Source: a virus (lineage: Duplodnaviria > Heunggongvirae > Uroviricota > Caudoviricetes). From it: DNA of 47,980 nucleotides. This document shows, piece by piece, positions 1 through 27,264 of the stretch; the stretch's first letter is position 1; each line of letters begins with the position of its first letter. Under the pieces are notes generated by a model that saw nothing but the letters and a program-made list of their open reading frames with translations, was not told where the DNA came from and made no database searches. The translations under genes and the position numbers were made by a program. The DNA lies in the IMG/VR virus record IMGVR_UViG_2565956724_000008, positions 1 through 47,980 of that record. One strand, given 5' to 3'.

Positions 1-318
1 ATGAAAAAGATAGCTGCTATATCATTAATTAGTATTTTTATTATGTCTGGTTGTGCTGTGCATAATGATGAGACAAGTATCGGTAAATTTGGTCTTGCAT
101 ATAAAAGTAATATTCAGCGTAAACTCGATAACCAATACTACACCGAAGCCGAAGCTTCTTTAGCCAGGGGTAGAATATCTGGTGCAGAAAATATAGTAAA
201 AAATGATGCAACTCATTTCTGTGTTACTCAGGGCAAAAAAATGCAAATAGTTGAGCTGAAGACAGAAGGTGTAGGATTACATGGTGTCGCTCGTCTGACA
301 TTCAAATGTGGAGAGTGA
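1..318 (+). CDS. putative small lipoprotein; host flank outside the prophage att core
   Basis: ORF from ATG at window start; N-terminal signal peptide with lipobox-like MSGC; AT-rich; lies outside the att core at 478..504. Family not recognised. Confidence 0.5.
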   Translation: MKKIAAISLISIFIMSGCAVHNDETSIGKFGLAYKSNIQRKLDNQYYTEAEASLARGRISGAENIVKNDATHFCVTQGKKMQIVELKTEGVGLHGVARLTFKCGE

Positions 319-380
319 GAATATTTTTTGGTAAGCGTCAAATATGCGCGTTCTGGCTGTGCGTAGCCGGAACCTGTGGG

Positions 381-413
381 AGCACGATGCCGATAAGTGA
401 AAGGCATCGTGCT
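381..413. repeat. perfect 11-bp stem / 11-nt loop inverted repeat (agcacgatgcc...ggcatcgtgct)
   Basis: Read directly from sequence; no T-run on either side, so not a classic intrinsic terminator. Confidence 0.4.
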
Positions 414-477
414 ATGAAGGAGGATTCTATCGATGTGGTCAATGGAAGACGGTTACCAGAGATAGGGCTTATGCATA

Positions 478-504
478 AAAAAATAAGCCCGTGTAAGGGA
501 GATT
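478..504. other. P2-type attachment site core (prophage/host junction)
   Basis: Sequence aaaaaataagcccgtgtaagggagatt matches the phage P2 att core as I recall it; located about 80 bp beyond the int stop, as expected for a P2 prophage end. Confidence 0.5.
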
Positions 505-583
505 TAGGGTGTCACCAGTAGGGGCTTTCAACGGTACAATGCGGGTTTGAGCGGCATAAATTACCACTGAAAGCCCTTAAACG

Positions 584-1597
584 TTACTCTACTGTGGACA
601 CTGTGTGGACACTCTCGGCCTCAGTACCACCTCTTAGCGGATTAAGAGAAATGGCGTCCTGAAGGTACTCTGGCGCAAAATGAGCGTAAACCATAGTTTG
701 CTCAATCCGCGTGTGACCTAGTATCCGTTGTAGCGTGATAATACTTCCTCCATTAATCATGAAATGAGTGGCAAAGCTGTGCCTTAGTGCATGTGTGGCT
801 TGCCCCATTGGCAAATCCGGTTTTATTGCTTTCATTGTTCGTCTGAAGCGAGGGTAATCAGCATCAGGGAATAAAAAACCTCGTTTGTTATCCGCGATCA
901 TTTTGGCAACAGCCTCTGAGATCGGGACGGTGCGTGGTTTGTTTGTTTTCGTTTTAACAAACGTGACGCGGTTATGGATGATATTTTCTGCTTTCAAACG
1001 AGCTGCTTCTCCCCAACGTGCTCCAGTACTCAGGCAAAGAATCGCAATCTTTTTGTTGTCGCCGTCAAGAGCAGCAAGCAGTAAGGCAATTTCTTCCTGC
1101 GTGAGATAGCCTGTGTCTGGTTTTTCCTCCTTAAGCCTTTTTGTCCCTCTGATAGGGTGCTCACCAAAGAATAACTCCGCTTCAATCAGGGCTGTAAACA
1201 TGCCGCTAATACATGTTAAATCACGATTGATACTCGAAGGTTTAATACCCTGACTTCTTCGGGTGGCGCAGTACTGGCTGATAAGCGATTTCGTAATTTG
1301 AAATGCGCATGGGTCATTCGTTATTTTTGTGAAGATTTCAATTTTTCCAAGATTAGATTTCCCATGCTCTTCGTGTTTACCCTTTAAATCCCACCAGATC
1401 TGTGTCAGCTCCGACAGACGTCGCTTGTCTGTTGGTTTTGATAGCCATTCTTTATTGTGGTGGTTGTACAACGTGTATTTCTCGAAAGCGACAGCTTCGC
1501 TTTTCTTATCAAACTTCCTACGGATGCGTTTTCCATTACGTCCAGTAGGGCGGATGTCCACTTCATATCGACCATCATCGAGTTTTTTGATTGCCAT
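584..1597 (-). CDS. int: tyrosine integrase (P2 Int-like)
   Basis: 337 aa, the same length as P2 Int; C-terminal HxLRHxxAT...Y catalytic region (ATHALRHSFATHF...VYAHF); adjacent to att core. Confidence 0.9.
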   Translation of the reverse strand: MAIKKLDDGRYEVDIRPTGRNGKRIRRKFDKKSEAVAFEKYTLYNHHNKEWLSKPTDKRRLSELTQIWWDLKGKHEEHGKSNLGKIEIFTKITNDPCAFQITKSLISQYCATRRSQGIKPSSINRDLTCISGMFTALIEAELFFGEHPIRGTKRLKEEKPDTGYLTQEEIALLLAALDGDNKKIAILCLSTGARWGEAARLKAENIIHNRVTFVKTKTNKPRTVPISEAVAKMIADNKRGFLFPDADYPRFRRTMKAIKPDLPMGQATHALRHSFATHFMINGGSIITLQRILGHTRIEQTMVYAHFAPEYLQDAISLNPLRGGTEAESVHTVSTVE

Positions 1598-1712
1598 CAG
1601 AAAACCCTCCGAGTGGTGTGTTTTTTTGCGACTACTAATCGCTTTTTTCGTGGTGGCTGAAATTTAGCCACCAATAGTAGGCACTTGTGATGAATATATT
1701 CACGATGAATTG

Positions 1713-2012
1713 TTAACCAGTCTTTTGACCGGAGTGGGGCGACGTTGTTTCGTTTTGCCCAAAGTGTGCGAGAGCGGGCGCAATTTGCCCGGACTCAGGA
1801 GCGATCTGATTGGTCATGAACCATAAAGTGTATTTGGTGAATTGTGGGGTCTGCAGGATGTTCATCATGACATCTGTTGGAGGTGTTGAACGACCACTTT
1901 CATAGTAACTCAGCGTGCCATACGGAACCCCTGTTAAATCAGCAAGTTGTTGTCTGCTCAAATACTCTGATTTTCGCATTAAGACTATCTTCTCGCTTAT
2001 CGTGTTTGACAT
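1713..2012 (-). CDS. C: immunity repressor C (P2 C-like, HTH)
   Basis: 99 aa as in P2 C; HTH-like segment (LSRQQLADLTGVPYGTLSYYE); divergent from cox across an operator-bearing intergenic region. Confidence 0.85.
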   Translation of the reverse strand: MSNTISEKIVLMRKSEYLSRQQLADLTGVPYGTLSYYESGRSTPPTDVMMNILQTPQFTKYTLWFMTNQIAPESGQIAPALAHFGQNETTSPHSGQKTG

Positions 2013-2015
2013 GGT

Positions 2016-2045
2016 GTTTAGATCTCAATAGTATTTAGTTTAGAT
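2016..2045. promoter_or_regulatory. C-repressor operator-like direct repeats (two GTTTAGAT copies spaced 22 bp) in the Pe/Pc switch region
   Basis: GTTTAGAT at 2016..2023 and 2038..2045 read from sequence, with an A/T-rich -10-like stretch between; matches the known P2 architecture of two 8-bp direct-repeat operators flanking the Pe -10. Confidence 0.5.
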
Positions 2046-2126
2046 GTAGATTGTTTAGTGCTTGGATGTGGGCACTAAAAGGCATTATAAGACATTAAAC
2101 GCAATTCATGAGGGCTAGAGGACGAC

Positions 2127-2402
2127 ATGAGCAAGCAAGTAACACTCATGACTGATGCGATTCCTTATCAGGAGTTCGCAAAACTAATAGGAAAATCGAC
2201 AGGAGCGGTTCGTCGGATGATCGATAAAGGAAAGCTGCCTGTAATTGATATGACCGATCCACAATCAGCTTCAGGTCGTGCTGGTGAATATTGGGTATAC
2301 CTTCCGGCATGGAATAACGGACTAAAACTGGCTTATGAAAGCCGACCTAAAGAGATTCGTGACGGCTGGTTGATGTGGTTAGGTCTCGGTGAACCACGTT
2401 AA
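2127..2402 (+). CDS. cox: Cox excisionase / transcriptional repressor of Pc
   Basis: 91 aa as in P2 Cox; first gene of the early rightward operon, opposite C. Confidence 0.85.
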   Translation: MSKQVTLMTDAIPYQEFAKLIGKSTGAVRRMIDKGKLPVIDMTDPQSASGRAGEYWVYLPAWNNGLKLAYESRPKEIRDGWLMWLGLGEPR

Positions 2403-2583
2403 GGAGAACCGTATGAATGAGCCTCGTTGTATTGCTCAGTTACTGCGTAACGAAAGCCCCAGGGCGATTGACTTCACCATCACCCACGGTAAGGGGCGTA
2501 AGGGAATCATTATCCGCACCAAAAAACAGAGTCCGTTAAAAAAGGCTCTGACCTTTCTGAAAAGCCGGAGGGTATGGAAATGA
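2389..2583 (+). CDS. hypothetical early protein (P2 orf78 position)
   Basis: Small basic ORF between cox and B, overlapping both gene ends; true start may be the internal MNEPRC. Confidence 0.45.
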   Translation: MNHVKENRMNEPRCIAQLLRNESPRAIDFTITHGKGRKGIIIRTKKQSPLKKALTFLKSRRVWK

Positions 2584-3080
2584 CAGTGATGACGCTCAAT
2601 CTCGTTGAAAAACAGCCAGCAGCTATGCGCCGGATAATTGGTAAGCATCTTGCCGTTCCTCGCTGGCAAGATACATGTGATTATTATAATCAGATGATGG
2701 AGCGCGAACGGCTAACAGTTTGCTTTCATGCGCAGTTAAAACAGCGTCACGCAACGATGCGTTTTGAAGAAATGAACGACGTCGAACGTGAACGACTGGT
2801 ATGTGCAATTGATGAATTGCGTGGGGCATTCTCAAAACGTCGTCAGGTCGGTGCAAGTGAGTATGCATATATTAGTTTTTTAACAGTCAGTCAGCGTCGT
2901 ACTTTATTTATGCATGCCGGATTGACTGAAAAAGAATTTAACCAGCCATACTGGCGAATTAATGAAGAGTCATGTTACTGGCGTGATGCTTTATTCCGTG
3001 CATTACGTGAATTATTCAGCCTGTTTGAGTATGCACCGACAATTCTGACGTCGGTAAAACCAGAGCAATATCTGCATTAA
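2574..3080 (+). CDS. B: replication protein B (P2 B-like, helicase-loader function)
   Basis: 168 aa versus P2 B of about 166 aa; position between cox and A. Confidence 0.75.
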   Translation: MEMTVMTLNLVEKQPAAMRRIIGKHLAVPRWQDTCDYYNQMMERERLTVCFHAQLKQRHATMRFEEMNDVERERLVCAIDELRGAFSKRRQVGASEYAYISFLTVSQRRTLFMHAGLTEKEFNQPYWRINEESCYWRDALFRALRELFSLFEYAPTILTSVKPEQYLH

Positions 3081-3143
3081 GTAATTAACCAGAGTTTTTA
3101 ACGCACTTAATCGTGCGGGGCTTCTTTTTGCCTGGAGAAAGTT

Positions 3144-3368
3144 ATGCATACAGTTTCTGAAAATCAGTGCGGTAAATACGCATTACTGCTGCAACAGGCC
3201 AGAACCGAAGCACAGGCCGACGCTGCGACGCGCTTTTCTTCTCATCTTGATGCCATGATTCGCCACATCACAAAGGCGGAGTTATCCCGCGTGGAGATAG
3301 TCGAGCTGCTCAGTCAGGAGTCGGAAAAATTTCACAATATCGGATTGTCTCGCGGGGAGGTGCTTTGA
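3144..3368 (+). CDS. hypothetical early protein (P2 orf80 position)
   Basis: 74-aa ORF in the B-to-A early operon, good coding context. Confidence 0.55.
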
Positions 3369-3670
3369 TGTCCTGTTCTCGTTCAGTTGTATTACTGAAT
3401 AACGCCTTAAAAATCGCCGTTATGAAAAATGGCGATTTGTCTCTTATTCAACTTGGTCTTGATAAAGAAAAACGCGAAATAACTGAGTCTGTTATCGCGA
3501 TTTATCAGAACGAATTAAACCTCCTGTCTGATGTGGTCAATTTGCTTGTTAAACGCGCTGTGTTTCACAAGCAAATCTCCTCCGTGGATGAACTGACGAA
3601 ATTAACGACAGAAATCGCCAGCTATTGCGCTGATGAATTTAAAAACCTTAACGACAAAAGGAACTGGTAA
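3365..3670 (+). CDS. hypothetical early protein (P2 orf81 position)
   Basis: 101-aa ORF; start overlaps the previous stop (ATGA), suggesting translational coupling. Confidence 0.55.
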
Positions 3671-3894
3671 TGCCGGACAACGTAGATTTTATTCAGGCAC
3701 AACAGGCTGAATTACTGGAGCGCCAGATTAACGCGGCAAGGGTAAAACATTGCGGTGCTTCTGCGATGGTTTGCGAAGAGTGTGACGCGCCAATACCTGC
3801 TGCCCGTCGTGCGGCTTATCCGTCAGCCACGCGTTGTGTTTCCTGTCAGTCAGTTTTTGAAGCAAAAAACAAACATTACCGGAGAACGGCATGA
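3670..3894 (+). CDS. TraR/DksA-family C4 zinc-finger protein (P2 orf82 position)
   Basis: 74 aa with CEEC...(17 aa)...CVSC four-cysteine motif typical of the TraR/DksA family. Confidence 0.65.
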   Translation: MPDNVDFIQAQQAELLERQINAARVKHCGASAMVCEECDAPIPAARRAAYPSATRCVSCQSVFEAKNKHYRRTA

Positions 3895-4166
3895 GTATTC
3901 GTATTGAAATTGGCGAACGTTATGTCGTTACCAGTGACAGCTTTCAGTTTATTCTCCACGAGAAAAAGAGAGCTGAAAGCGGTAAAAACGCCGGTCAGGA
4001 ATGGCTGGCGGTGGTTGGTTATTACCCGAAATTAAGCCAGCTCGTTTCCGGCCTGATGCATCACGATATTCTGACCGGAAGCGCAAAGTCTTTTGCTGAT
4101 TTAAACGCGCAGGTTGAGCAAATCAGCAAGCGTTGTTCAGAGGCTTTTGGCTCATATGGCCGTTAA
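3891..4166 (+). CDS. hypothetical early protein (P2 orf83 position)
   Basis: 91-aa ORF immediately upstream of and overlapping the A start. Confidence 0.55.
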   Translation: MSIRIEIGERYVVTSDSFQFILHEKKRAESGKNAGQEWLAVVGYYPKLSQLVSGLMHHDILTGSAKSFADLNAQVEQISKRCSEAFGSYGR

Positions 4167-6429
4167 AGCCTCCGGGCGTTTTGTCCCTCCGTCAGCATTT
4201 GCCGCAGGCACCGGTAAGACGTTTACCGGTGCTTATGCATGGAACGCGCCACGCGAGGCCGTCGGGCGCGAAAGACCCCTTACACGTGACGAGATGCGTC
4301 AGGTGCAAGGTGTTTTATCCACGATTAACCGCCTGCCTTACTTTTTGCGCTCGCTGTTTACTTCACGCTATGACTACATCCGGCGCAATAAAAGCCCGGT
4401 GCACGGGTTTTATTTCCTCACATCCACTTTTCAGCGTCGTTTATGGCCGCGCATTGAGCGTGTGAATCAGCGCCATGAAATGAACACCGACGCGTCGTTG
4501 CTGTTTCTGGCAGAGCGTGATCACTATGCGCGCCTGCCGGGAATGAATGACAAGGAGCTGAAAAAGTTTGCCGCCCGTATCTCATCGCAGCTTTTCATGA
4601 TGTATGAGGAACTCAGCGATGCCTGGGTGGATGCGCATGGCGAAAAAGAATCACTGTTTACGGATGAGGCTCAGGATCACCTGTATGGTCATGTTGCTGG
4701 CGCTGCACGAGCTTTCAATATTTCCCCTCTCTACTGGAAAAAATACCGTAAAAGACAGATGACCACGAGGCAGGCATATTCTGCCATTGCCCGTCTGTTT
4801 AACGATGAGTGGTGGACTCATCAGCTTAAAGGCCAGCGTATGCGCTGGCATGAAGCGTTACTGATAGCTGTCGGGGAGGTCAATAAAGACCGTTCTCCTT
4901 ATGCCAGTAAACACGCCATTCGTGATGTGCGTGCGCGCCGCCAGGCAAATCTGGAATTTCTTAAATCGTGTGACCTTGAAAACAGGGAAACCGGCGAGCG
5001 CATCGACCTTATCAGTAAGGTGATGGGCAGTATTTCTAATCCTGAAATTCGCCGGATGGAGCTGATGAACACCATTGCCGGTATTGAGCGTTACGCCGCT
5101 GCAGAGGGTGATGTGGGGATGTTTATCACGCTGACCGCGCCGTCAAAGTATCACCCGACACGTCAGGTAGGAAAAGGCGAAAGTAAAACCGTGCAGCTTA
5201 ATCACGGCTGGAACGATGAGGCATTTAATCCAAAGGATGCGCAGCGTTATCTCTGCCGTATCTGGAGCCTGATGCGCACGGCATTCAAGGATAATGATTT
5301 ACAGGTCTACGGTTTGCGTGTCGTCGAGCCACACCACGACGGAACGCCGCACTGGCATATGATGCTTTTTTGTAATTCACGCCAGCGTAACCAGATTATC
5401 GAAATCATGCGTCGCTATGCGCTCAAAGAGGATGGCGACGAAAGAGGAGCCGCGCGAAACCGTTTTCAGGCAAAACACCTTAACCGGGGCGGTGCTGCGG
5501 GATATATCGCGAAATACATTTCAAAAAACATCGACGGCTATGCACTGGATGGTCAGCTCGATAACGACACCGGCAGGCCGCTGAAAGACACTGCAGCGGC
5601 TGTTACCGCATGGGCGTCAACGTGGCGCATCCCGCAATTTAAAACGGTTGGCCTGCCGACAATGGGGGCTTACCGTGAACTACGCAAATTGCCGCGCGGC
5701 GTCAGCATTGCTGATGAGTTTGACGAGCGCGTCGAGGCTGCACGCGCCGCCGCAGACAGTGGTGATTTTGCGTTGTATATCAGCGCGCAGGGTGGGGCAA
5801 ATGTCCCGCGCGATTGTCAGACTGTCAGAGTCGCCCGTAGCCCGTCGGATGAAGTTAACGAGTACGAGGAAGAAGTCGAGAGAGTGGTCGGCATTTACGC
5901 GCCGCATCTCGGCGCGCGTCATATTCATATCACCAGAACGACGGACTGGCGCATTGTGCCGAAAGTTCCGGTCGTTGAGCCTTTGACTTTAAAAAGCGGC
6001 ATCGCCGCGCCTCGGAGTCCTGTCAATAACTGTGGAAAGCTCACTGGTGGTGATACTTCGTTACCGGCTCCCACACCTTCTGAGCACGCCGCAGCAGTGC
6101 TTAATCTGGTAGATGACGGTGTTATCGAATGGAATGACCCGGAGGTCGTGAGAGCGCTCAGAAGTGCATTAAAACACGGCCTGAGAAGACCAAACCGTCA
6201 GCAAAGAAACGGAAGCCCGTTAAAACCGCATGAAATAGCGCCATCGGCCAGACTGACCCGGTCGGAACGAATGCAAATTACCCGTATCCGCGTTGACCTT
6301 ACTCAGAACGGTATCAGGCCTCAGCGATGGGAGCTTGAGGCGCTGGCGCGTGGGGCAACTGTAAATTATGACGGGAAAAAATTCACGTATCCGGTTGCTG
6401 ATGAGTGGTCGGGATTTTCCTCAAACTAA
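4156..6429 (+). CDS. A: rolling-circle replication initiator endonuclease A
   Basis: Long ORF; I place the start at in-frame ATG 4156 (MAVKASGRF..., as in P2 A) rather than ORF-track 4114; P2 A is about 761 aa. Contains HxH-type (PHWHMM) and YIAKYISK motifs of rolling-circle Rep proteins. Confidence 0.9.
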   Translation: MAVKASGRFVPPSAFAAGTGKTFTGAYAWNAPREAVGRERPLTRDEMRQVQGVLSTINRLPYFLRSLFTSRYDYIRRNKSPVHGFYFLTSTFQRRLWPRIERVNQRHEMNTDASLLFLAERDHYARLPGMNDKELKKFAARISSQLFMMYEELSDAWVDAHGEKESLFTDEAQDHLYGHVAGAARAFNISPLYWKKYRKRQMTTRQAYSAIARLFNDEWWTHQLKGQRMRWHEALLIAVGEVNKDRSPYASKHAIRDVRARRQANLEFLKSCDLENRETGERIDLISKVMGSISNPEIRRMELMNTIAGIERYAAAEGDVGMFITLTAPSKYHPTRQVGKGESKTVQLNHGWNDEAFNPKDAQRYLCRIWSLMRTAFKDNDLQVYGLRVVEPHHDGTPHWHMMLFCNSRQRNQIIEIMRRYALKEDGDERGAARNRFQAKHLNRGGAAGYIAKYISKNIDGYALDGQLDNDTGRPLKDTAAAVTAWASTWRIPQFKTVGLPTMGAYRELRKLPRGVSIADEFDERVEAARAAADSGDFALYISAQGGANVPRDCQTVRVARSPSDEVNEYEEEVERVVGIYAPHLGARHIHITRTTDWRIVPKVPVVEPLTLKSGIAAPRSPVNNCGKLTGGDTSLPAPTPSEHAAAVLNLVDDGVIEWNDPEVVRALRSALKHGLRRPNRQQRNGSPLKPHEIAPSARLTRSERMQITRIRVDLTQNGIRPQRWELEALARGATVNYDGKKFTYPVADEWSGFSSN

Positions 6430-6601
6430 TAATGGTGTTTGACAAAGAGATGTTGATGAGACTAAGAATTTTATTTATCTGTATAACCATTCGGTTAGAG
6501 TACAATAGTTTCGAGTGATATGAATAAAAATAACGGCTAAGTTTTCAACATGCGATTGTTATGGGTTGGATTAAGGATAAGTAACTATATGAAATAATAT
6601 A

Positions 6602-6634
6602 GGGCAAGAAGGTGTTCTTGCCCTTTGTTTATTT
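6602..6634. terminator. bidirectional rho-independent terminator between convergent A and SIR2 genes
   Basis: gggcaagaa-ggtg-ttcttgccc hairpin followed by tttgtttattt on + and by a T-rich run on -; read directly. Confidence 0.6.
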
Positions 6635-9227
6635 AAGCGGCAATTTCCATATTGCTTTTATATTTTAAGAGAGCGTTTTGGGGAACTGCTGGCCAAGCTA
6701 AGAATCTATAATAGTTCATATAATCTTTTTCTATCAGGTTTTTTAGTTGTTTGTTTGCTTTAAATTCATCGTCAAGTAAAAAGAATGCACACATGGCTGC
6801 ATCACCTTTTGAATTGTTATGTGCTAAAACTGAATTTATGTCGTTTTCTTTAATGTCTTGATTGTCTTTTTTCTTGGCAACTTCTCTGTTTATTATTAAG
6901 ACATCTCTCTCTCTGTAGTCTTTAATTTTGTCAAGGTTTTCATTGACTATATTAATTGTTTCTTTATAGTTTCCTGCAAGCAGGTTGGTATAAGCTTTGC
7001 CTAAAATATAATTACTGAATCCATAACCTTTATCATAAGCTTCATCAAGAAGTTCTATCGCTTTTTTGAAATCACTGTTTAAAGATGCAATATCGGATTT
7101 TAATTTCAGAATGGTAATTTCTGATTTGTTTCTTGGCAGGCTGTCAATAAACTCTTCTGCCAGTTTGATGTTGTTTTTATTAATTAATAATATGTCCACA
7201 ATACTATCCGCATGATTACTCTTCCACGGATGATTCATGGCTTCTTTAGCTAATTCAATGCCTGCATTAATGTCTCTGTTGCAGCCTATCTCATATCGAG
7301 CTTTAAATATAATGAAAGGAGCAATTCTTGCAATGTCGCCCTCTTCTTCATATTTATCAATGAAGCCTTTCATTAAACTGGGAGTGTTTTCATCGAAGTC
7401 TGTTTCAAATAAAGACAGGTGTAGTTTTGTTAAATATCTTAATATGTTTCTCTTTTTGTTTTTCGATGACGTTTTGTAAATGTTGGATAATGTTTCTATG
7501 CACAATAATGTTTTTTCTTTTTTTTGTAATGCACAAGTAAAATCAGTGTATAACGACAAATATGTATCGTGGGTAGGGTTGATTTCATTTATTTGGTCGA
7601 GCATTTCTTGTATTAAATTATTACAATCTTTCTTATCATAGCTTGATTGATGTTTTATCATTATTGCGTCATATTTTATTCTCCAAGCGATATTGTCTAG
7701 ATCGCTACTTTGGAGTAAGCTCTTATCAATTAGGTTATGTATTTCATCAAAGGTTATTAATCCCTCGTCATGATTTTCCAGATGAAGAATAGCAATTCTG
7801 CTTAAATGATTCTTAAGGTTTATGCTATATGGGAATTTTTCTAGCAATCCCTTAAGGTAATGTATTTTTTCCTTTAGATCTGTGAATATGTTTGTTCTTG
7901 ATAGGGCGTAATTTATATTAAACTCATCAAGAGCGATAAGTTTATCACTGATTTCTAATGCAGACTTTGTATCTTTTTGTTCTTCTTTTATTTCAATTAG
8001 CCTGCGCAGGTATTTGGATTTTATATTGTCATTATCAGCGTTATCGATTAATTCCTTTAGTTTTGTCTCAGCGCTTAAATATTTTTTGTTTCTAATGAGG
8101 TTGTCAATGTATAACAAATTCTTGAAATTTTCTTCAGGGATCTTTTGATCGTCTAAGTCATTTTGGGATAACTCATTTATTAATGATGATATGTCATGTG
8201 TTAGAGTGTATCTTTTTAATTTTGAAAGATCGGATTTGATAATGTCATTTTTAGATAATTTGTACTCATCAGTTATAAAATTTTGGATCATCATCTCTCT
8301 TTTTGTGGATTTTTGATTCCCTCCAAAAGAGAGTGCGCAACCTAATTCAAGGGCTAGTTCTGCCATTAACTCATCAAAGCCTTCTATTTCTACCCAATAA
8401 ACTTTCTCTTGACCTAGAAGCCTAATTAGTTCTGGTGGGATGGCGTCATTTTGTCTTACGCACCAATATACCCCATTCCGTAGGTAATCGTCCTGTTTTA
8501 ATAAATGTTTTAAAACATCCATGATAGAGCTGTCATTGCCAGCATAACCAACAAAAATAATCCCGTATTCTTTAGTGAATTCAGTTAGTTTTTCACGAGT
8601 GTTACCTTCTAATGACTCGGTTTCTTTTAAAGAGCTTTTTATGCTATCAAATAGATAATCACCATGTAATTTTATTATTTTGGGTCTTGAAGAAGTAATT
8701 GAGACGCCTTTAATTGATGAGTCATGTGCGCATAATAATGGTCTGTCAGAAGAAAATTGATAAAATGCTTCATTTATTAAATCGTCAAAATTTGTTGTGA
8801 AGACAGTATCAAAAAACTTTGATTCAAATAGTTCAACGAGATAAGCATATCCAATTGAAGGTAATTTTTTGTCTACTTGAAGCTCAACAAATCTTCTGCG
8901 TTGAGATGGGAGATCAAATTTCTTTTCAAAAAGAGAGGAGTATTCATTGTTTGGGTCGTACCAGACTGGATGGTTTTTGGATAGCCATTTTTTAGCTTCT
9001 TCGGCATCGATATATTCTTCATTGGATAGTCTTGTGTATATCTCTTCTCTCCATTTTGCAACTAACTCTTGACCAGTTTTTATTCCTGATGTAACGGATG
9101 CACCAGCACCAAGAAAGAGTGAATAGTTAGGTGATGTACCTGATTTGATTTTTATATAATCAGCTAAATCTTTAACTGTTCTTTTTTTGGCAACCAGTTG
9201 TTCCTTGGTAGTATCACGATCAGACAT
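6633..9227 (-). CDS. SIR2-domain protein with long C-terminal helical-repeat region; candidate anti-phage NADase (DSR-like) in the P2 tin/old slot
   Basis: 864 aa; N-terminal motifs FLGAGASVTSG, TTNFDDL and KLHGDY match the sirtuin-like Rossmann NAD-binding fold; C-terminal ~550 aa is K/N/I/L/E-rich with TPR-like appearance; gene visibly AT-rich compared with flanking phage genes; GGAGGG Shine-Dalgarno before the ATG. Confidence 0.7.
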   Translation of the reverse strand: MSDRDTTKEQLVAKKRTVKDLADYIKIKSGTSPNYSLFLGAGASVTSGIKTGQELVAKWREEIYTRLSNEEYIDAEEAKKWLSKNHPVWYDPNNEYSSLFEKKFDLPSQRRRFVELQVDKKLPSIGYAYLVELFESKFFDTVFTTNFDDLINEAFYQFSSDRPLLCAHDSSIKGVSITSSRPKIIKLHGDYLFDSIKSSLKETESLEGNTREKLTEFTKEYGIIFVGYAGNDSSIMDVLKHLLKQDDYLRNGVYWCVRQNDAIPPELIRLLGQEKVYWVEIEGFDELMAELALELGCALSFGGNQKSTKREMMIQNFITDEYKLSKNDIIKSDLSKLKRYTLTHDISSLINELSQNDLDDQKIPEENFKNLLYIDNLIRNKKYLSAETKLKELIDNADNDNIKSKYLRRLIEIKEEQKDTKSALEISDKLIALDEFNINYALSRTNIFTDLKEKIHYLKGLLEKFPYSINLKNHLSRIAILHLENHDEGLITFDEIHNLIDKSLLQSSDLDNIAWRIKYDAIMIKHQSSYDKKDCNNLIQEMLDQINEINPTHDTYLSLYTDFTCALQKKEKTLLCIETLSNIYKTSSKNKKRNILRYLTKLHLSLFETDFDENTPSLMKGFIDKYEEEGDIARIAPFIIFKARYEIGCNRDINAGIELAKEAMNHPWKSNHADSIVDILLINKNNIKLAEEFIDSLPRNKSEITILKLKSDIASLNSDFKKAIELLDEAYDKGYGFSNYILGKAYTNLLAGNYKETINIVNENLDKIKDYRERDVLIINREVAKKKDNQDIKENDINSVLAHNNSKGDAAMCAFFLLDDEFKANKQLKNLIEKDYMNYYRFLAWPAVPQNALLKYKSNMEIAA

Positions 9228-9532
9228 TTTCCCTCCATAAATTATGCTGTGTGAAGTAAGAATAATCCTAGGTATGGCTATTTTTACATGAAATTCAATG
9301 GGTTTTCGTTTTTCTTATTTGCATTTTGTGACTGAGATCAAGCTATGAGGGAGAAATACTTTTTTATTGTTCGCTAGAGGCTAATTAGCTTGTACTAATA
9401 GTTTATGATGTACCATAGCGTTGAATGATTTTGCATGCATTTGTCAGATGCTTACTAATGTTGTTATGTCAGAGCTGGTGCGCTTTAGGTTATTTCATGC
9501 AACTGCATTAAAACCGTCTCATGAAGCGGGCG

Positions 9533-9551
9533 GGCGAGGCGGGGAAAGCAC
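9533..9551. other. cos cohesive-end site (P2-type 19 nt)
   Basis: ggcgaggcggggaaagcac matches the P2 cohesive-end sequence as I recall it; lies between the cargo gene and Q, as in P2. Confidence 0.55.
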
Positions 9552-9720
9552 TGCGCGCTGGCGGTGGTGCTGATTTTATTTTTTCAGCGTCTGAGCGCGT
9601 CGTGATGGCGTTTAGATTGTTCGCCGGGGCGTTGGTGTGTCTGTGGGATGTTTTGTGCGGTGGTGAGCGTGTGAGGGCGTGATGGCGGGTTGTAAAAAAG
9701 CCGCCCGCAGGCGGCGATGT

Positions 9721-10755
9721 TCAGCCGTTGTCAGTGTCCAGTGAGTAGTTTTTAAAGCGGATGACCTCCTGACCGAGCCAGCCGTTTATCTCGCGGATCC
9801 TGTCCTGTAGCGGGATAAGTTCATTGCGGACAAAGACCTTTGCCACTTTCTCAATATCACCCAGCGACCCGACGTTCTCCGGCTTGCCGCCCATCAACTG
9901 AAAGGGGATGCGGTGCGCGTCCAGCAGGTCAGCGGCGCTGGCTTTTTTGATATTAAAAAAATCGTCCTTCGTTGCCACTTCACTGAGCGGGATAATTTTA
10001 ATGCCGTCGGCTTTCCCCTGCGGGGCATAGAGAAACAGATTTTTAAAGTTGTTGCGGCCTTTCGACTTGACCATGTTTTCGCGAAGCATTTCGATATCGT
10101 TGCGATCCTGCACGGCATCAGTGACGTACATGATGTATCCGGCATGTGCGCCATTTTCGTAATACTTGCGGCGGAACAGCGTGGCCGACTCATTCAGCCA
10201 GGCAGAGTTAAGGGCGCTGAGATATTCCGGCAGGCCGTACAGCTCCTGATTAATATCCGGCTCCAGCAGGTGAAACACGGAGCCGGGCGCGAAGGCTGTC
10301 GGCTCGTTGAAGGACGGCACCCACCAGTAAACATCCTCTTCCACACCACGGCGGGTATATTTTGCCGGTGAGGTTTCCAGCCTGATAACTTTACCGGTGG
10401 TGCTGTAACGCTTTTCCAGAAATGCATTACCAAATACCAGAAAATCCAGCACAAAGCGGCTGAAATCCTGCTGGGAAAGCCATGGATGCGGGATAAATGT
10501 CGAGGCCAGAATATTACGTTTGACGTAAATCGGTGAGCTGTGATGCACGGCAGCACGCAGGCTTTTTGCCAGACCGGTAAAGCTGACCGGCGGCTCATAC
10601 CATCTGCCGTTACTGATGCATTCGACGTAATCCAGAATGTCACGGCGGTCGAGCACCGGCACCGGCTCACCAAAGGTGAATGCCTCCATTTTCGGGGCGC
10701 TGGCAGTCATTTTTTTTGCCGCAGGTTGCGGTGTTTTCCCTTTTTTCTTGCTCAT
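9721..10755 (-). CDS. Q: portal protein Q
   Basis: 344 aa as in P2 Q; N-terminus MSKKKGKTPQPAAKK; first gene after cos. Confidence 0.9.
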   Translation of the reverse strand: MSKKKGKTPQPAAKKMTASAPKMEAFTFGEPVPVLDRRDILDYVECISNGRWYEPPVSFTGLAKSLRAAVHHSSPIYVKRNILASTFIPHPWLSQQDFSRFVLDFLVFGNAFLEKRYSTTGKVIRLETSPAKYTRRGVEEDVYWWVPSFNEPTAFAPGSVFHLLEPDINQELYGLPEYLSALNSAWLNESATLFRRKYYENGAHAGYIMYVTDAVQDRNDIEMLRENMVKSKGRNNFKNLFLYAPQGKADGIKIIPLSEVATKDDFFNIKKASAADLLDAHRIPFQLMGGKPENVGSLGDIEKVAKVFVRNELIPLQDRIREINGWLGQEVIRFKNYSLDTDNG

Positions 10756-12527
10756 CAGTAAAACTCCAGAATGGTGGATGTCAGCGGGGTGCTGATACCG
10801 GCGGTGAGTGGCTCATTTAACAGAGCGTGCATGGTCGCCCAGGCGAGGTCGGCGTGGCTGGCTTCCTCGCTGCGGCTGGCCTCATAGGTGGCGCTGCGTC
10901 CGCTGCTGGTCATGGTCTTGCGGATAGCCATAAACGAGCTGGTGATGTCGGTGGCGCTGACGTCATATTCCAGACAGCCACGGCGAATAACGTCTTTTGC
11001 CTTGAGCACCATTGCGGTTTTCATTTCCGGCGTGTAGCGGATGTCGCGCGCGGCGGGATAGAACGAGCGCACGAGCTGGAACACGCCGACACCGAGGCCG
11101 GTGGCATCAATACCGATGTATTCGACGTTGTATTTTTCGGTGAGTTTGCGGATGGATTCCGCCTGGGTGGCAAAGTCCATGCCTTTCCACTGGTGACGCT
11201 CAAGTATTCTGAATTTGCCACCGGCCACCACCGGTGGTGCCAGCACCACGCATCCGGCGCTGTCGCCACGGTGTGACGGGTCGTAACCAATCCATACTGG
11301 GCGGGAGCCGAACGGATTCGCGGCAAACGGCGCATAGTCTTCCCATTCTTCCAGCGTGTCGACCATGCAGCGTTGCAGCTCCTCGAACGGGAACACCGAC
11401 GCCTTGTCGTCAACAAATTCACACATGAACAGGTTTTTAAAATCGTCGGCGCTGTTTTCACGTTTGAGCTGCTCAATGTCGAACAGCGTGCAGCCACCTT
11501 TCAGGGCGTCCTCAATGGTGACAATCTGCCGCCACTGGCCGTCCGCACAGAGAAGCCCACCGGCAAGGGCGTTATGACTGACGTCGATTTCCACGCGTTC
11601 GGCGGCGCTGGCGCGTCCCCGGTTGAACAGTTCACCTGACCAGAACGGGTAGGCGTCGTGCGCCAGCGTGGACGGGGTGGAGAAATAGGTCGAGCGCAGG
11701 TGACTCTGTGAGGCCATACCTGATGCCACCTTACGCAGTACCTGAAAATTCGGGATCCAGAAAATCTCGTCGACGTACAGGTCGCCGTTATGGCTCTGCG
11801 CGGTGTTGGAGTTGGTGCCGAGAAAAATCAGTTTTGCGCCGTTATTGCCCAGGACAATCGGGTCACCGGTCAGGTCAACGTCAACCAGACGGGCAAAGGC
11901 GATGATGTATTCGCGGAACACATACGCCTGCGTTTTACTGGCCGACAGAAAAATCTGGTTATGGCCGGTTTTCAGGGCGCGCAGCAGTGCCTCGCGGGAA
12001 AAATAAAACGTCGCGCCAATCTGGCGGGATTTCAGGATATCGCGGATGCGGTGCTCAAGCCCGGCGCGATACCAGTGCAACTGATAGTCGAAAGACTGCT
12101 CAAAGAAAATCTGCTCCAGCTTTTCGATGGCCTCGTCACTGAAAAAATTCTTTTTCGGTTTGCGACGCCCGCCTTTGTTGCGGTTAGCGACGTTCGGATT
12201 AAGGTCTGCCTCGTTGCCGGTCTGACTGTAACGGTTGACCCGTGCCAGTCGTTCAATCTGGCGTCCGAGCAGATCAATTTCCTTGAAGTCACCGCCGGTT
12301 TTCTGCGGTTTGATGATGAGCTGGGTCAGCCGCGCTTCCAGACTCATTTCGACACGGCTGATGGGGGCAACGCTGTCCCAGCCGTCGCGCTGTTTCCAGC
12401 TCTGCACCGTCGGGCGTTTCATCTGCAACATGGCGGCAATCTGCGGCACGGAAAACCCCTGCCAGTACAGCAGCGCCGCCTGACGACGCGGGTCGTGTAA
12501 AAGAGTGGTGTCTGTGGTGATGGTCAT
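10755..12527 (-). CDS. P: terminase large (ATPase) subunit P
   Basis: Start placed at in-frame ATG (MTITTDTT...), giving 590 aa as in P2 P; the ORF track extends it 10 codons upstream to 12557. Confidence 0.85.
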   Translation of the reverse strand: MTITTDTTLLHDPRRQAALLYWQGFSVPQIAAMLQMKRPTVQSWKQRDGWDSVAPISRVEMSLEARLTQLIIKPQKTGGDFKEIDLLGRQIERLARVNRYSQTGNEADLNPNVANRNKGGRRKPKKNFFSDEAIEKLEQIFFEQSFDYQLHWYRAGLEHRIRDILKSRQIGATFYFSREALLRALKTGHNQIFLSASKTQAYVFREYIIAFARLVDVDLTGDPIVLGNNGAKLIFLGTNSNTAQSHNGDLYVDEIFWIPNFQVLRKVASGMASQSHLRSTYFSTPSTLAHDAYPFWSGELFNRGRASAAERVEIDVSHNALAGGLLCADGQWRQIVTIEDALKGGCTLFDIEQLKRENSADDFKNLFMCEFVDDKASVFPFEELQRCMVDTLEEWEDYAPFAANPFGSRPVWIGYDPSHRGDSAGCVVLAPPVVAGGKFRILERHQWKGMDFATQAESIRKLTEKYNVEYIGIDATGLGVGVFQLVRSFYPAARDIRYTPEMKTAMVLKAKDVIRRGCLEYDVSATDITSSFMAIRKTMTSSGRSATYEASRSEEASHADLAWATMHALLNEPLTAGISTPLTSTILEFY

Positions 12528-12700
12528 GAATACCTCGCCGTGATGAATACACGGCAAGGCTACTGAGTCGCGCCCCGCGATTCGCTAAGGTGCTGTTGTG
12601 TCAGTGATAAGCCATCCGGGACTGATGGCGGAGGATGCGCATCGTCGGGAAACTGATGCCGACATGTGACTCCTCTAATCACTATTCAGGACTCCTGACA

Positions 12701-13555
12701 ATGGCAAAAAAAGTCTCAAAATTCTTTCGTATCGGCGTTGAGGGTGACACCTGTGACGGGCGTGTCATCAGTGCGCAGGATATTCAGGAAATGGCCGAAA
12801 CCTTTGACCCGCGTGTCTATGGTTGCCGCATTAACCTGGAACATCTGCGCGGCATCCTGCCTGACGGTATTTTTAAGCGTTATGGCGATGTGACCGAACT
12901 GAAGGCCGAAAAGATTGACGATGATTCGGCGCTGAAAGGCAAATGGGCGCTGTTTGCGAAAATCACCCCGACCGATGACCTTATCGCGATGAACAAGGCC
13001 GCGCAGAAGGTCTATACCTCAATGGAAATTCAGCCGAACTTTGCCAATACCGGCAAATGTTATCTGGTGGGTCTGGCCGTCACCGATGACCCGGCAAGCC
13101 TCGGCACGGAATACCTGGAATTCTGCCGCACGGCAAAACACAACCCCCTGAACCGCTTCAAATTAAGCCCTGAAAACCTGATTTCAGTGGCAACGCCCGT
13201 TGAGCTGGAATTTGAAGACCTGCCTGAAACCGTGTTCACCGCCCTGACCGAAAAGGTGAAGTCCATTTTTGGCCGCAAACAGGCCAGCGATGACGCCCGT
13301 CTGAATGACGTGCATGAAGCGGTGACCGCTGTTGCTGAACATGTGCAGGAAAAACTGAGCGCCACTGAGCAGCGCCTCGCTGAGATGGAAACCGCTTTTT
13401 CCGCACTTAAGCAGGATGTGACTGACAGGGCGGATGAAACCAGCCAGGCATTCACCCGCCTGAAAAACAGTCTCGACCACACCGAAAGTCTGACCCAGCA
13501 GCGCCGCAGCAAGGCCACCGGTGGTGGCGGTGACGCCCTGATGACGAACTGCTGA
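12701..13555 (+). CDS. O: capsid scaffolding protein O
   Basis: Start placed at MAKKVSKFF (ATG 12701), giving 284 aa as in P2 O; the ORF track starts at 12635. Confidence 0.85.
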   Translation: MAKKVSKFFRIGVEGDTCDGRVISAQDIQEMAETFDPRVYGCRINLEHLRGILPDGIFKRYGDVTELKAEKIDDDSALKGKWALFAKITPTDDLIAMNKAAQKVYTSMEIQPNFANTGKCYLVGLAVTDDPASLGTEYLEFCRTAKHNPLNRFKLSPENLISVATPVELEFEDLPETVFTALTEKVKSIFGRKQASDDARLNDVHEAVTAVAEHVQEKLSATEQRLAEMETAFSALKQDVTDRADETSQAFTRLKNSLDHTESLTQQRRSKATGGGGDALMTNC

Positions 13556-13613
13556 CCGGCGTCAGTCAGTCCGGGAAAACCTTCACGATTAACCCTTAAT
13601 TTCAGGAAAAACT

Positions 13614-14687
13614 ATGCGCCAGGAAACCCGCTTTAAATTTAATGCCTACCTGTCCCGTGTTGCCGAACTGAACGGCATCGACGCCGGTGATGTGTCGAAA
13701 AAATTCACCGTTGAACCGTCGGTCACCCAGACCCTGATGAACACCATGCAGGAGTCCTCTGACTTTCTGACCCGCATCAACATTGTGCCGGTCAGCGAAA
13801 TGAAAGGGGAAAAAATTGGCATCGGTGTCACCGGCTCCATCGCCAGCACCACCGACACCGCCGGTGGCACCGAGCGTCAGCCGAAGGACTTCTCGAAGCT
13901 GGCGTCAAACAAGTACGAATGCGACCAGATTAACTTCGATTTTTATATCCGCTACAAAACGCTGGACCTGTGGGCGCGTTATCAGGATTTCCAGCTCCGT
14001 GTCCGTAACGCCATTATCAAACGCCAGTCCCTTGATTTAATCATGGCCGGTTTTAACGGCGTGAGGCGTGCCGAAACCTCTGACCGCAGCAGCAATCCGA
14101 TGCTGCAGGATGTGGCGGTCGGCTGGCTGCAGAAATACCGCAATGAAGCCCCGGCGCGCGTGATGAGCAAGGTCACTGACGAGGAAGGGCACACCACCTC
14201 TGAGGTTATCCGCGTGGGTAAGGGCGGTGATTATGCCAGCCTTGACGCACTGGTGATGGATGCGACCAACAACCTGATTGAGCCGTGGTATCAGGAAGAC
14301 CCTGACCTTGTGGTGGTTGTGGGACGTCAGCTACTGGCGGACAAGTATTTTCCCATCGTCAACAAGGAGCAGGACAACAGCGAAATGCTGGCCGCTGACG
14401 TCATCATCAGCCAGAAACGCATCGGTAACCTGCCGGCGGTACGCGTCCCGTACTTTCCGGCGGATGCGATGCTCATCACAAAGCTGGAAAACCTGTCCAT
14501 CTACTACATGGATGACAGCCATCGCCGCGTGATTGAGGAAAACCCGAAACTCGACCGCGTGGAGAACTACGAGTCAATGAACATTGATTACGTGGTGGAA
14601 GACTACGCCGCCGGTTGTCTGGTGGAAAAAATTAAGGTCGGTGATTTCTCCACACTGGCTAAAGCGACCGCAGAGCCGGGAGCGTAA
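13614..14687 (+). CDS. N: major capsid protein N
   Basis: 357 aa as in P2 N; follows the scaffold gene. Confidence 0.9.
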   Translation: MRQETRFKFNAYLSRVAELNGIDAGDVSKKFTVEPSVTQTLMNTMQESSDFLTRINIVPVSEMKGEKIGIGVTGSIASTTDTAGGTERQPKDFSKLASNKYECDQINFDFYIRYKTLDLWARYQDFQLRVRNAIIKRQSLDLIMAGFNGVRRAETSDRSSNPMLQDVAVGWLQKYRNEAPARVMSKVTDEEGHTTSEVIRVGKGGDYASLDALVMDATNNLIEPWYQEDPDLVVVVGRQLLADKYFPIVNKEQDNSEMLAADVIISQKRIGNLPAVRVPYFPADAMLITKLENLSIYYMDDSHRRVIEENPKLDRVENYESMNIDYVVEDYAAGCLVEKIKVGDFSTLAKATAEPGA

Positions 14688-14690
14688 CCG

Positions 14691-15434
14691 ATGACGAGTC
14701 CCGCACAGCGCCACATGATGCGGGTCTCGGCAGCGATGACCGCGCAGCGGGAAGCCGCCCCGCTGCGACATGCAACTGTCTATGAGCAGATGCTGGTTAA
14801 GCTCGCCGCAGACCAGCGCACACTGAAAGCGATTTATTCAAAAGAGCTGAAGGCCGCGAAAAAACGCGAACTGCTGCCGTTCTGGTTGCCGTGGGTGAAC
14901 GGCGTGCTGGAGCAGGGCAAAGGTGCACAGGATGACATTCTGATGACGGTCATGCTGTGGCGTCTGGATACCGGCGATATTGCCGGTGCGCTGGAGATTG
15001 CCCGTTATGCCCTGAAGTACGGTCTGACCATGCCGGGTAAACACCGCCGTACCCCGCCGTACATGTTCACCGAGGAGGTAGCGCTCGCGGCCATGCGCGC
15101 TCACGCTGCCGGTGAGTCTGTGGATACCCGCCTGCTGACGGAGACCCTTGAACTGACCGCCACGGCTGACATGCCTGATGAAGTGCGCGCAAAGCTGCAC
15201 AAAATCACCGGTCTGTTTCTGCGTGACGGTGGTGATGCCGCCGGTGCGCTGGCTCACCTGCAACGTGCGACACAGCTCGACTGTCAGGCAGGCGTCAAAA
15301 AAGAGATTGAACGACTGGAGCGGGAGCTGAAACCGAAGCCGGAGCCGCAGCCCAAAGCGGCCACCCGCGCCCCGCGTAAGATCCGGAGCGTGACACCGGC
15401 AAAACGTGGACGCCCGAAAAAGAAAGCCAGTTAA
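14691..15434 (+). CDS. M: terminase small (endonuclease) subunit M
   Basis: 247 aa as in P2 M; basic C-terminal tail. Confidence 0.85.
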   Translation: MTSPAQRHMMRVSAAMTAQREAAPLRHATVYEQMLVKLAADQRTLKAIYSKELKAAKKRELLPFWLPWVNGVLEQGKGAQDDILMTVMLWRLDTGDIAGALEIARYALKYGLTMPGKHRRTPPYMFTEEVALAAMRAHAAGESVDTRLLTETLELTATADMPDEVRAKLHKITGLFLRDGGDAAGALAHLQRATQLDCQAGVKKEIERLERELKPKPEPQPKAATRAPRKIRSVTPAKRGRPKKKAS

Positions 15435-15533
15435 CAACCGAATGCGCCCCGCGCCAGGGCGGCACGCCGGTCAGTGAGGGTGAATCACCTGACACTGCAC
15501 CGGCGTCCACCGCCCGACTTTTCAGAGGTAGTC

Positions 15534-16043
15534 ATGATGACGCTGATTATTCCGCGAAAGGAGGCTCCCGTGTCCGGTGAGGGTACGGTGGTCATCCCGC
15601 AACCGGCAGGCGACGAGCCGGTGATTAAAAACACGTTCTTTTTTCCCGATATCGACCCGAAGCGCGTCCGGGAACGTATGCGCCTTGAGCAGACCGTCGC
15701 CCCCGCCCGTCTGCGTGAGGCCATCAAGTCAGGCATGGCGGAGACGAATGCGGAGCTGTACGAGTACCGCGAACAGAAAATTGCCGCCGGTTTTACGCGT
15801 CTGGCGGACGTCCCGGCGGACGACATCGACGGTGAAAGCATCAAAGTTTTTTACTACGAGCGCGCCGTGTGTGCGATGGCGACCGCGTCGCTTTATGAAC
15901 GTTATCGCGGTGTGGATGCCAGTGCAAAAGGCGACAAGAAGGCCGACAGCATTGACAGCACCATTGATGAGCTGTGGCGGGATATGCGCTGGGCAGTGGC
16001 GCGCATCCAGGGCAAGCCGCGCTGCATCGTGAGTCAAATCTGA
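15534..16043 (+). CDS. L: head completion/stabilisation protein L
   Basis: Start placed at MMTLIIPRKE (ATG 15534), giving 169 aa as in P2 L. Confidence 0.8.
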   Translation: MMTLIIPRKEAPVSGEGTVVIPQPAGDEPVIKNTFFFPDIDPKRVRERMRLEQTVAPARLREAIKSGMAETNAELYEYREQKIAAGFTRLADVPADDIDGESIKVFYYERAVCAMATASLYERYRGVDASAKGDKKADSIDSTIDELWRDMRWAVARIQGKPRCIVSQI

Positions 16044-16246
16044 TGAAGACCTTTGCGCTACAGGGCGACACGCTCGACGCCATTTGTGTCCGGTATTACG
16101 GGCGCACTGAGGGCGTGGTTGAGACCGTGCTCGCCGCAAATCCGGGACTGGCTGAACTGGGTGCGGTGTTGCCGCACGGCACCGCCGTCGAACTGCCCGA
16201 CGTTCAGACCGCGCCCGTGGCTGAAACTGTCAATCTGTGGGAGTAA
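16043..16246 (+). CDS. X: tail protein X
   Basis: Start placed at MKTFALQGD (ATG 16043, overlapping the L stop), giving 67 aa as in P2 X. Confidence 0.8.
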   Translation: MKTFALQGDTLDAICVRYYGRTEGVVETVLAANPGLAELGAVLPHGTAVELPDVQTAPVAETVNLWE

Positions 16247-16249
16247 CGC

Positions 16250-16531
16250 ATGACAGCAGAAGAAAAAAGCGTCCTGTCGCTTTTCATGATTGGGGTGCTG
16301 ATTGTTGTCGGCAAGGTGCTTGCCGGTGGTGAACCCATCACCCCGCGTCTGTTTATCGGGCGCATGTTGCTCGGTGGTTTTGTCTCGATGGTTGCCGGTG
16401 TTGTTCTGGTGCAGTTTCCTGACCTGTCACTGCCTGCGGTGTGCGGTATCGGCTCCATGCTGGGTATCGCCGGTTATCAGGTGATTGAGATTGCCATTCA
16501 GCGCCGTTTTAAGGGCAGGGGGAAACAGTAA
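16250..16531 (+). CDS. Y: holin Y
   Basis: 93 aa; hydrophobic transmembrane segments; first gene of the lysis cassette as in P2. Confidence 0.8.
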   Translation: MTAEEKSVLSLFMIGVLIVVGKVLAGGEPITPRLFIGRMLLGGFVSMVAGVVLVQFPDLSLPAVCGIGSMLGIAGYQVIEIAIQRRFKGRGKQ

Positions 16532-17028
16532 TGCCGGTAATTAACACGCATCAGAATATCGCGGCCTTTCTCGACATGCTGGCCGTGTCCGAAGGGACGG
16601 CGAATCATCCGCTGACGAAAAACCGGGGCTATGACGTGATAGTCACCGGACTGGACGGGAAGCCGGAAATTTTCACTGACTACAGTGACCACCCGTTCGC
16701 GCATGGCCGACCGGCGAAGGTGTTTAACCGTCGCGGTGAAAAATCCACGGCCTCCGGTCGCTATCAGCAGCTTTACCTGTTCTGGCCGCACTACCGCAAA
16801 CAGCTTGCCCTGCCGGATTTCAGTCCGTTGTCACAGGACAGGCTCGCCATTCAGTTGATCCGCGAACGCGGTGCACTGGATGACATCCGGGCGGGACGCA
16901 TTGAGCGCGCTATTTCACGCTGTCGCAATATCTGGGCGTCCCTGCCGGGTGCCGGTTACGGTCAGCGTGAGCATTCACTGGAAAAACTGGTCACCGTCTG
17001 GCGTACCGCCGGCGGTGTACCAGCTTAA
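16531..17028 (+). CDS. K: endolysin K
   Basis: 165 aa as in P2 K; follows the holin. Confidence 0.8.
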   Translation: MPVINTHQNIAAFLDMLAVSEGTANHPLTKNRGYDVIVTGLDGKPEIFTDYSDHPFAHGRPAKVFNRRGEKSTASGRYQQLYLFWPHYRKQLALPDFSPLSQDRLAIQLIRERGALDDIRAGRIERAISRCRNIWASLPGAGYGQREHSLEKLVTVWRTAGGVPA

Positions 17029-17042
17029 ACGGAGTAAACACC

Positions 17043-20716: not shown

Positions 20717-20720
20717 AACC

Positions 20721-27260: not shown

Positions 27261-27264
27261 GGTT

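Follow-up and report, generated by a model that had tools for sequence, protein, structure and literature searches.

The invertible segments Mu G, P1 C and e14 P, together with those of P2-like prophages of EPEC, are bounded by inverted, imperfectly palindromic 26-bp sites that have the same central dinucleotide, and the sites of the segment described here are of this kind. Invertases of the Gin and Hin type need an intramolecular synapse that depends on an enhancer and Fis, and intermolecular exchange is strongly disfavoured. We know of no invertible tail-fibre segment in canonical P2. The chromosomal site at which the prophage described here resides, yegR/cyaR-yegQ, is the one occupied by the cryptic ogrK remnant in K-12. 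We also take it to be the preferred P2 site, 'locI' (Barreiro & Haggard-Ljungquist 1992). The arm-type sites of P2-type Int follow the consensus tgTGGaCa (PMC3448106). For tail-fibre segments of P2-like prophages, the presence of both orientations within clonal E. coli cultures has been reported (PMC4272514).

The DNA analysed, called the window throughout, is a stretch of 47,980 nucleotides that makes up positions 1 to 47,980 of the IMG/VR virus record IMGVR_UViG_2565956724_000008. The repeat search returned a single inverted repeat, with arms at 1-23070 and 24911-47980 (23,070 nt each, 100% complementary) and 1840 nt between them. When the window was compared base by base with its own reverse complement, the first mismatch was at 23071 and the last one at 24910, and there were zero Ns. 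Since 2 x 23070 + 1840 = 47980, the whole window is a palindrome. A sequence-only reading made beforehand had described mirrored arms that reach past the att core into a lipoprotein gene and a hairpin, and this description was confirmed by an exact inverted copy of bases 1-504 at 47477-47980. A perfect inverted match of 504 nt, or of 23 kb, cannot have arisen by chance. The window starts and ends exactly at the yegR start codon, and these ends look like a cut placed at a gene boundary by whatever made the window, not like a biological end. The coordinates of the features are collected in Table 1.

Table 1. Features of the window. Strand is as given for the window; a dot stands for features assigned to neither strand.
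Feature	Position	Strand	Basis
yegR, small putative lipoprotein, E. coli core-genome gene, host flank	1..318	+	translation, RefSeq annotation
Stable hairpin, yegR-att intergenic, host DNA	381..413	+	fold: 11-bp stem, -24.3 kcal/mol, z = -5.9
27-bp P2 att core, attL copy: AAAAAATAAGCCCGTGTAAGGGAGATT	478..504	+	P2 identity, four-way alignment
Phage arm of attL and P2-type tyrosine integrase gene (584-1597)	505..1597	-	100% to P2 attP/int; Pfam Int_N and Phage_integrase
Int arm-type repeats TGTGGACA	593-600, 604-611		match to P2-type arm consensus tgTGGaCa
Left two-thirds of P2-like prophage, in the order C, cox, B, A, SIR2 accessory gene, Q, P, O, N, M, L, X, lysis genes, R, S, V, W, J, I	1598..22229	.	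ORFs; Pfam domains and order of genes in loci that are identical or nearly so
Tail-fibre gene H, G(+) state; constant part to 23070, then variable C-terminus 1 (Collar)	22230..23537	+	Pfam Phage_tail_fib and Collar
Left crossover site, 26 bp: TTCTCGCATACC TT GGTTTGGGAGAA; palindrome arm ends at 23070	23044..23069	+	site comparison
Unique centre, invertible tail-fibre segment (G)	23071..24910	.	repeat search, ORFs, Pfam
Contents of G, plus strand: H C-terminus 1; tail-fibre assembly gene	assembly gene 23537-24139	+	
Contents of G, minus strand: tail-fibre assembly gene; alternative H C-terminus 2	assembly gene 24111-24551; C-terminus 2 from 24573	-	
Right site as in the window: TTCTCCCAAACC AA GGTATGCGAGAA	24912..24937	+	exact reverse complement of left site
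Second arm (reverse complement of 1-23070), very probably artefactual	24911..47980	-	repeat search, self-comparison
Second arm, H'	24573-25751	-	
Second arm, mirrored int	46384-47397	+	
Second arm, mirrored att core	47477-47503		
Second arm, mirrored yegR	47663-47980	-	

Bases 1-477 are E. coli chromosome, consisting of yegR and the intergenic hairpin. The first open reading frame encodes 105 amino acids with a lipoprotein-type signal (MKKIAAISLISIFIMSGC..., ...IFIMSGC), the RefSeq label under its 100% matches is 'protein YegR', and PF27694:YegR was called in related loci. The query 1-504 was found in 5418 of the 5426 complete E. coli genomes, with coverage of 80% or more in 5397 of them, and it occupied a median of 1 and a maximum of 2 places per genome. 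ATCC 8739, a genome with an empty site, matches this query at 100%, so that the hairpin at 381-413 is also present where there is no prophage. A weaker hairpin at 464-490 (GGGCTTAT...ATAAGCCC; -11.8 kcal/mol, z = -2.0, statistically weak) pairs host DNA left of the core with the first bases of the core, and the empty site has the same hairpin.

The same 477 bases were absent from P2 and the other Peduovirus genomes compared. The sequence-only reading had named the lipoprotein gene inside P2-like phage genomes as the find that would speak against its att assignment, and only two 'phage' records matched bases 1-477. One of them, AY639599, is a 2.4-kb junction fragment. The other, ON470606.1 (Escherichia phage vB_EcoM-720R8, 'partial genome'), has the host genes gatR, yegS and yegR beyond attL (7-2493), which indicates a prophage cut out with its host flank and not a packaged genome. 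With these host genes, the record could lead astray any search meant to establish if a gene is encoded by phages. The check proposed in the same reading, to locate the gene in a closed genome of the host species, was carried out in UTME-13, where yegR is single-copy and has yegS on one side and a P2-like prophage on the other; the far end of this prophage adjoins cyaR/yegQ. Past yegS, the flank of the source strain carries genes for a HAD hydrolase, an MFS transporter, an FGGY kinase and a mannitol dehydrogenase, in the place of which most other loci have the gat (galactitol) operon; the stretches compared were L023 19633-22581 and L024 1-5440 against L001 1-12095.

The att core was found once per strand in the window, at 478-504 (+) and 47477-47503 (-), with 0 occurrences expected by chance. 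Identity to P2 (AF063097/NC_001895) and other Peduovirus genomes begins exactly at 478 and remains at 100% to at least 760, and the matched P2 stretch carries the annotated attP, Int, IHF and Cox sites. A four-way alignment was made of the window attL, the empty site of ATCC 8739 (yegS-yegR-yegQ, no prophage), and the attL and attR of the closed lysogen UTME-13. These four sequences have no block in common other than the 27-bp core. The window follows the empty site through 504 and continues as phage, and attR is phage through the core and continues as the empty site. The att assignment made from the sequence was right, as shown by the start of P2 identity at 478 and by the core being the sole block that attL, attR and attB have in common, and so was the assignment of the flank to the host.

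At the empty site the order is yegR-core-cyaR-yegQ. Read on the opposite strand, the core corresponds to the 3' half of the cyaR terminator. The CyaR_RyeE family (RF00112) scored 100.7 bits at this site on the minus strand, with the terminator within the core, and the UTME-13 lysogen has a complete CyaR (97.1 bits) at attR, between ogrK and yegQ and overlapping the core. The att core is the terminator of cyaR, an sRNA gene, and forms its 3' end. Integration of P2 at this site resembles that of other phages into the 3' ends of tRNA genes, and cyaR is restored at attR. The body of cyaR is located at the far prophage end, attR, which the window does not contain; an Rfam scan of window 1-25000 gave no match because attL keeps only the terminator half of the gene. 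ARAGORN found no tRNA anywhere in the window. The earlier statement that no tRNA lies beside the core therefore stands, but the site is not anonymous intergenic DNA, given that Rfam and the alignment place the core in the cyaR terminator. The open-access literature offered no directly usable statement placing the P2 core in cyaR, so that the overlap is based on the Rfam and alignment results of this analysis.

In the closed UTME-13 lysogen the two att cores are direct repeats (locus positions 12978 and 43985). The cores of the window are inverted, and the third of the prophage on the ogr side is missing. Cores in inverted orientation cannot result from integration, and these two departures mark the second copy as non-biological.

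The body of the prophage has several features of its own. An 864-aa SIR2-domain protein is encoded at 6633-9227 (-), mirrored at 38754-41348 (+), between the replication gene A and the portal gene Q, an interval that is a variable accessory slot of P2-like phages. Matches to PADLOC SIR2 models (Aga_SIR2-PNTD, E = 5e-59) are confined to about the first 350 aa of the protein. The A-Q slot of UTME-13, the closest closed relative, holds an RNA-directed DNA polymerase of the retron type (L001 19420-20964). Between the tail genes S and V lies a 251-aa open reading frame, 18904-19659 (+), with no Pfam match on record and no PADLOC match, and most related prophages have a counterpart of 246-251 aa. 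Decayed or disrupted relatives of the prophage were present at the same site in three loci: L006 has lost the S-V genes and those from the tape measure to D, L018 retains only int-cox, SIR2, the portal gene and the tail end, and L012 has an IS66 element directly after the invertase gene.

The unique centre of the palindrome lies within the tail-fibre region. H encodes 435 aa (Collar) and H' 392 aa (Gp53-like_C), and the N-terminus is common to both. Normal contigs show both orientations of the segment, G(+) in L001, L034, L036 and others, and G(-) in L004-L009, L035 and L039. In all normal loci the natural right site is TTCTCCCAAACC AA CGTTTATGAAAA, with CGTTTATGAAAA as the outer half, and it is followed by the invertase gene. 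This gene encodes a 197-aa recombinase (Resolvase and HTH_7) that matches the Mu Gin structures 3UJ3/4M6F with E = 6e-94. After the invertase, the normal contigs continue with sheath, tube, tape measure, U, D, ogr, attR/cyaR and yegQ, and the right side of UTME-13 reads 'recombinase family protein', tail sheath, tube, tape measure, D, ogrK, cyaR and yegQ. Neither the invertase nor the tail genes from sheath to ogr, attR/cyaR or yegQ were among the contents of the window. An adjacent serine invertase, which the normal loci have, two inverted 26-bp sites and the same central dinucleotide in both identify G as a segment of the Gin/Cin/Pin/Hin type. The same cassette was also found in a Mu-like prophage with Mu Gp45/46/48 baseplate genes (L038, GCA_012824155.1 AATIPH010000002.1, 4898-7678), with an identical 200-aa assembly protein, a 146-aa partner, Collar and Gp53-like C-termini and an adjacent 184-aa invertase, which makes the switch module common to P2-like and Mu-like phages.

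The junctions on both sides of the segment were compared in a table of sites across loci, in which A is the left flank, G the segment and B the right flank. Normal G(+) loci read A|left site|ggctctgc... and ...ttagccgc|right site|B. Normal G(-) loci (L004, L005, L007, L009, L011 and L003) read A|left site|gcggctaaaagg... and ...gcagagcc|right site|B. The left junction of the window and of L010 (TTCTCGCATACC TT GGTTTGGGAGAA|ggctctgc) is the G(+) left junction of L001. Their right junction reads ...ttagccgc|TTCTCCCAAACC-AA-GGTATGCGAGAA|gaccggc, and that of the window is, base for base, the reverse complement of the G(-) left junction (...GGTTTGGGAGAA|gcggctaaaagg). It follows from these matches that the window has the structure A-G-rc(A), with A at both ends of G and B at neither. 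The left site and the natural right site have only 15 perfectly matching bases, and the right junction would for this reason most likely derive from genuine G(-) reads and not from the collapse of a repeat. A search of IMG/VR with the junction considered artefactual gave one match, L003 (IMGVR_UViG_2548876938_000002). This was rejected as the origin of the window, since the contig, 7.5 kb long, is in the normal flipped state and has the natural right site. In L003 a terminase piece (window 10930-11651) is joined directly to gene I/H (window 21903 onward), at L003 positions 1-722 and 717-2937, and either a large deletion within the contig or a further chimeric joining accounts for this.

The search of public records led to the draft E. 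coli scaffold KI538795.1 (GCA_000495075.1, 1.33 Mb), three stretches of which (L010, L023) are 100% identical to the window and gapless. The window is located at about 8877-56856 of this scaffold, which past yegR, on its long side, runs normally into yegS and the HAD and MFS genes from 56857 onward. On the short side (record 1-8876) the fold-back may extend into yegS, since look-ups with the SIR2 and A proteins grouped both copies with loci of identical gene neighbourhood. Of the contigs inspected, 24 for H' and 24 for the tail-fibre assembly protein, KI538795.1 is the only palindromic place; the other contigs, in either orientation, run on into the invertase and tail genes. A look-up with the assembly protein of the segment did not find a second scaffold of GCA_000495075.1 containing G-B. 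The Logan contig SRR958580_4 is 100% identical over window 1-16429 and has ~27 kb of host DNA on one side only. By coordinates it stops ~41 nt past the left crossover site and does not enter the second arm. Given this identity, SRR958580 may be a sequencing run of the GCA_000495075.1 BioSample. In 66 of 252 index blocks the longest contig with the assembly protein (23537-24139) was below 2 kb, close to the 1.84 kb of the segment itself. The frequency of such short contigs indicates that G often ends up as an orphan contig, which is the usual sign of a graph tangle here.

One other record, NZ_CP146689.1 (L032), has two places for the query and was considered as a second palindrome, but it was rejected as an ordinary chromosomal stretch. 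It is a 66,790-bp RefSeq entry, 'plasmid unnamed2, complete sequence', of E. coli MS 198-1, with the order yegI, mdtABCD, baeSR, yegQ, P2-like prophage, yegR, yegS, gatR, gatD. The replicon was probably misassigned or misassembled.

Judged from the sequences of the window and its relatives, we consider it very likely that the window stems from a misassembly, in which a draft E. coli scaffold was folded back on itself at the invertible segment to give a palindrome. The real locus would be yegS - yegR - attL - [int ... J I H - G - invertase - sheath ... D ogr] - attR/cyaR - yegQ, in which G (1.84 kb) would be flipped by a Gin/Pin-type serine invertase at two 26-bp sites with the same inner half-site and central dinucleotide. 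A culture with both orientations would give reads for the junction of A with the left end of G as well as for the junction of A with its right end, and in the assembly graph each end of G would be joined to A and also to B. A walk from A through G to the reverse complement of A would then use real junctions only, and the assembler appears to have emitted this walk. The outcome would be two 23,070-nt arms that are one DNA written twice, including yegR and the attL core, and the loss of the true right flank B with the invertase, the remaining third of the prophage, attR, cyaR and yegQ. The invertase gene would be missing from the window because the assembly turned back before reaching it. We infer that both orientations of G were present in the sequenced DNA; the coexistence of orientations reported in clonal cultures (PMC4272514) would supply the mixed junction reads needed for such a walk. 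The arms are base-identical and end at a feature that gives a two-way branch in the graph. Each junction is genuine in normal genomes, and their combination is unique to one draft record, in which the true continuation is missing.

The sequence-only reading had concluded that the palindrome is not intrinsic to the phage and that it is either chromosomal or artefactual. A palindrome made by the phage itself, as a replication dimer, a concatemer junction or hairpin telomeres, would account for the palindromic shape and nothing beyond it. The arms pass through attL into 477 nt of E. coli chromosome, the centre lies in a tail-fibre gene and not at cos or ori, and one third of the phage genome is missing. 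A replication dimer was rejected on account of the host flank, and we give almost no credence to a phage-made structure of any kind, in agreement with the earlier conclusion. Equally hard to credit is a chimera formed in the library or in a single read, by strand-switching, a fold-back read or amplification, without relation to G. Fold-back chimeras are a known source of palindromic sequence; such events would turn around at arbitrary points, and a 1.84-kb unique centre would not be expected. Here both arm ends fall to the base on two invertase crossover sites, and a read-level fold-back was rejected on this coincidence.

Of the two alternatives reported earlier, chromosomal or artefactual, the second is the one favoured by arms that end at crossover sites, by junctions that are both natural, and by their combination in one draft record. 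A real inverted duplication in the chromosome, in which the stretch from yegR to H was copied inverted beyond G and the right third of the prophage displaced or relocated, is improbable. Its presence in a deposited scaffold speaks for it, and the perfect identity of the arms would fit a very recent event. Such a duplication requires a second novel junction, and none was seen; the boundary observed is exactly what ordinary inversion junctions would give, and a duplication would leave the att cores inverted. The palindrome is in none of the other public contigs inspected, and yegR occurs a median of once and a maximum of twice in closed genomes. Moreover, a draft assembly cannot demonstrate a 23-kb perfect repeat, since one copy walked twice gives the same sequence and only long-range evidence would tell the two apart. 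A rare but real molecule, in which the invertase joined the left and right sites of sister chromosomes into a head-to-head dimer (A-G-rcA) frequent enough to be assembled, is less probable still. On paper this reaction gives exactly the observed junctions, as deduced from the sequences of the sites, and the neighbouring invertase is a close relative of Gin. The reaction is contrary to the intramolecular, enhancer-dependent mechanism of Gin and Hin, and the dimers would be rare and unstable. Their junctions would be indistinguishable from those of ordinary inversion, and no datum calls for a dimer.

On the fold-back misassembly reading, the mirrored structure is not a real feature, and the underlying biology is already known, namely a tail-fibre switch of the Gin/Pin type and the integration of P2 next to yegR, in the terminator of cyaR. 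KI538795.1 (GCA_000495075.1) appears to hold a spurious inverted copy of about 24 kb (arm 23,070 nt). In any provirus catalogue that extracts this locus, it will appear as a 48-kb 'phage' that has giant inverted ends, a host flank on each side and two integrases. The record should be halved and then completed with the missing part from the invertase to ogr. The presence of both junction types in one assembly suggests both orientations of G in the culture, and from this the prophage invertase was probably active in the sequenced lysogen. A perfect palindrome with arms that end at invertase crossover sites can serve as a diagnostic of a fold-back walk.

The locus can be compared with three known systems. 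Like the segments of the Gin/Cin/Pin/Hin type, this one has the constant N-terminus of the tail fibre outside and two C-termini and two opposed assembly genes inside. In the normal loci a Gin-like invertase adjoins the right site and both orientations are seen, as in known invertible segments, whereas the invertase gene that these segments have is absent in the window. With the P2 integration site the window has in common an identical 27-bp core, attP/int at 100% and the TGTGGACA arm repeats. After P2 integration the int end faces yegR and the ogr end faces cyaR/yegQ, and the core regenerates the cyaR terminator at attR. In contrast to a true P2 lysogen, which has attL and attR in direct orientation, the window holds only the attL side, twice and inverted. 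The literature consulted gave no directly usable description of palindromic contigs at invertible segments. Palindromic contigs that assemblers produce at inverted repeats or invertible segments have perfect arms, a unique centre, real local junctions and a missing continuation, as the window does. What is particular here, compared with such fold-back contigs in general, is that the inverted sites have just 15 perfectly matching bases.
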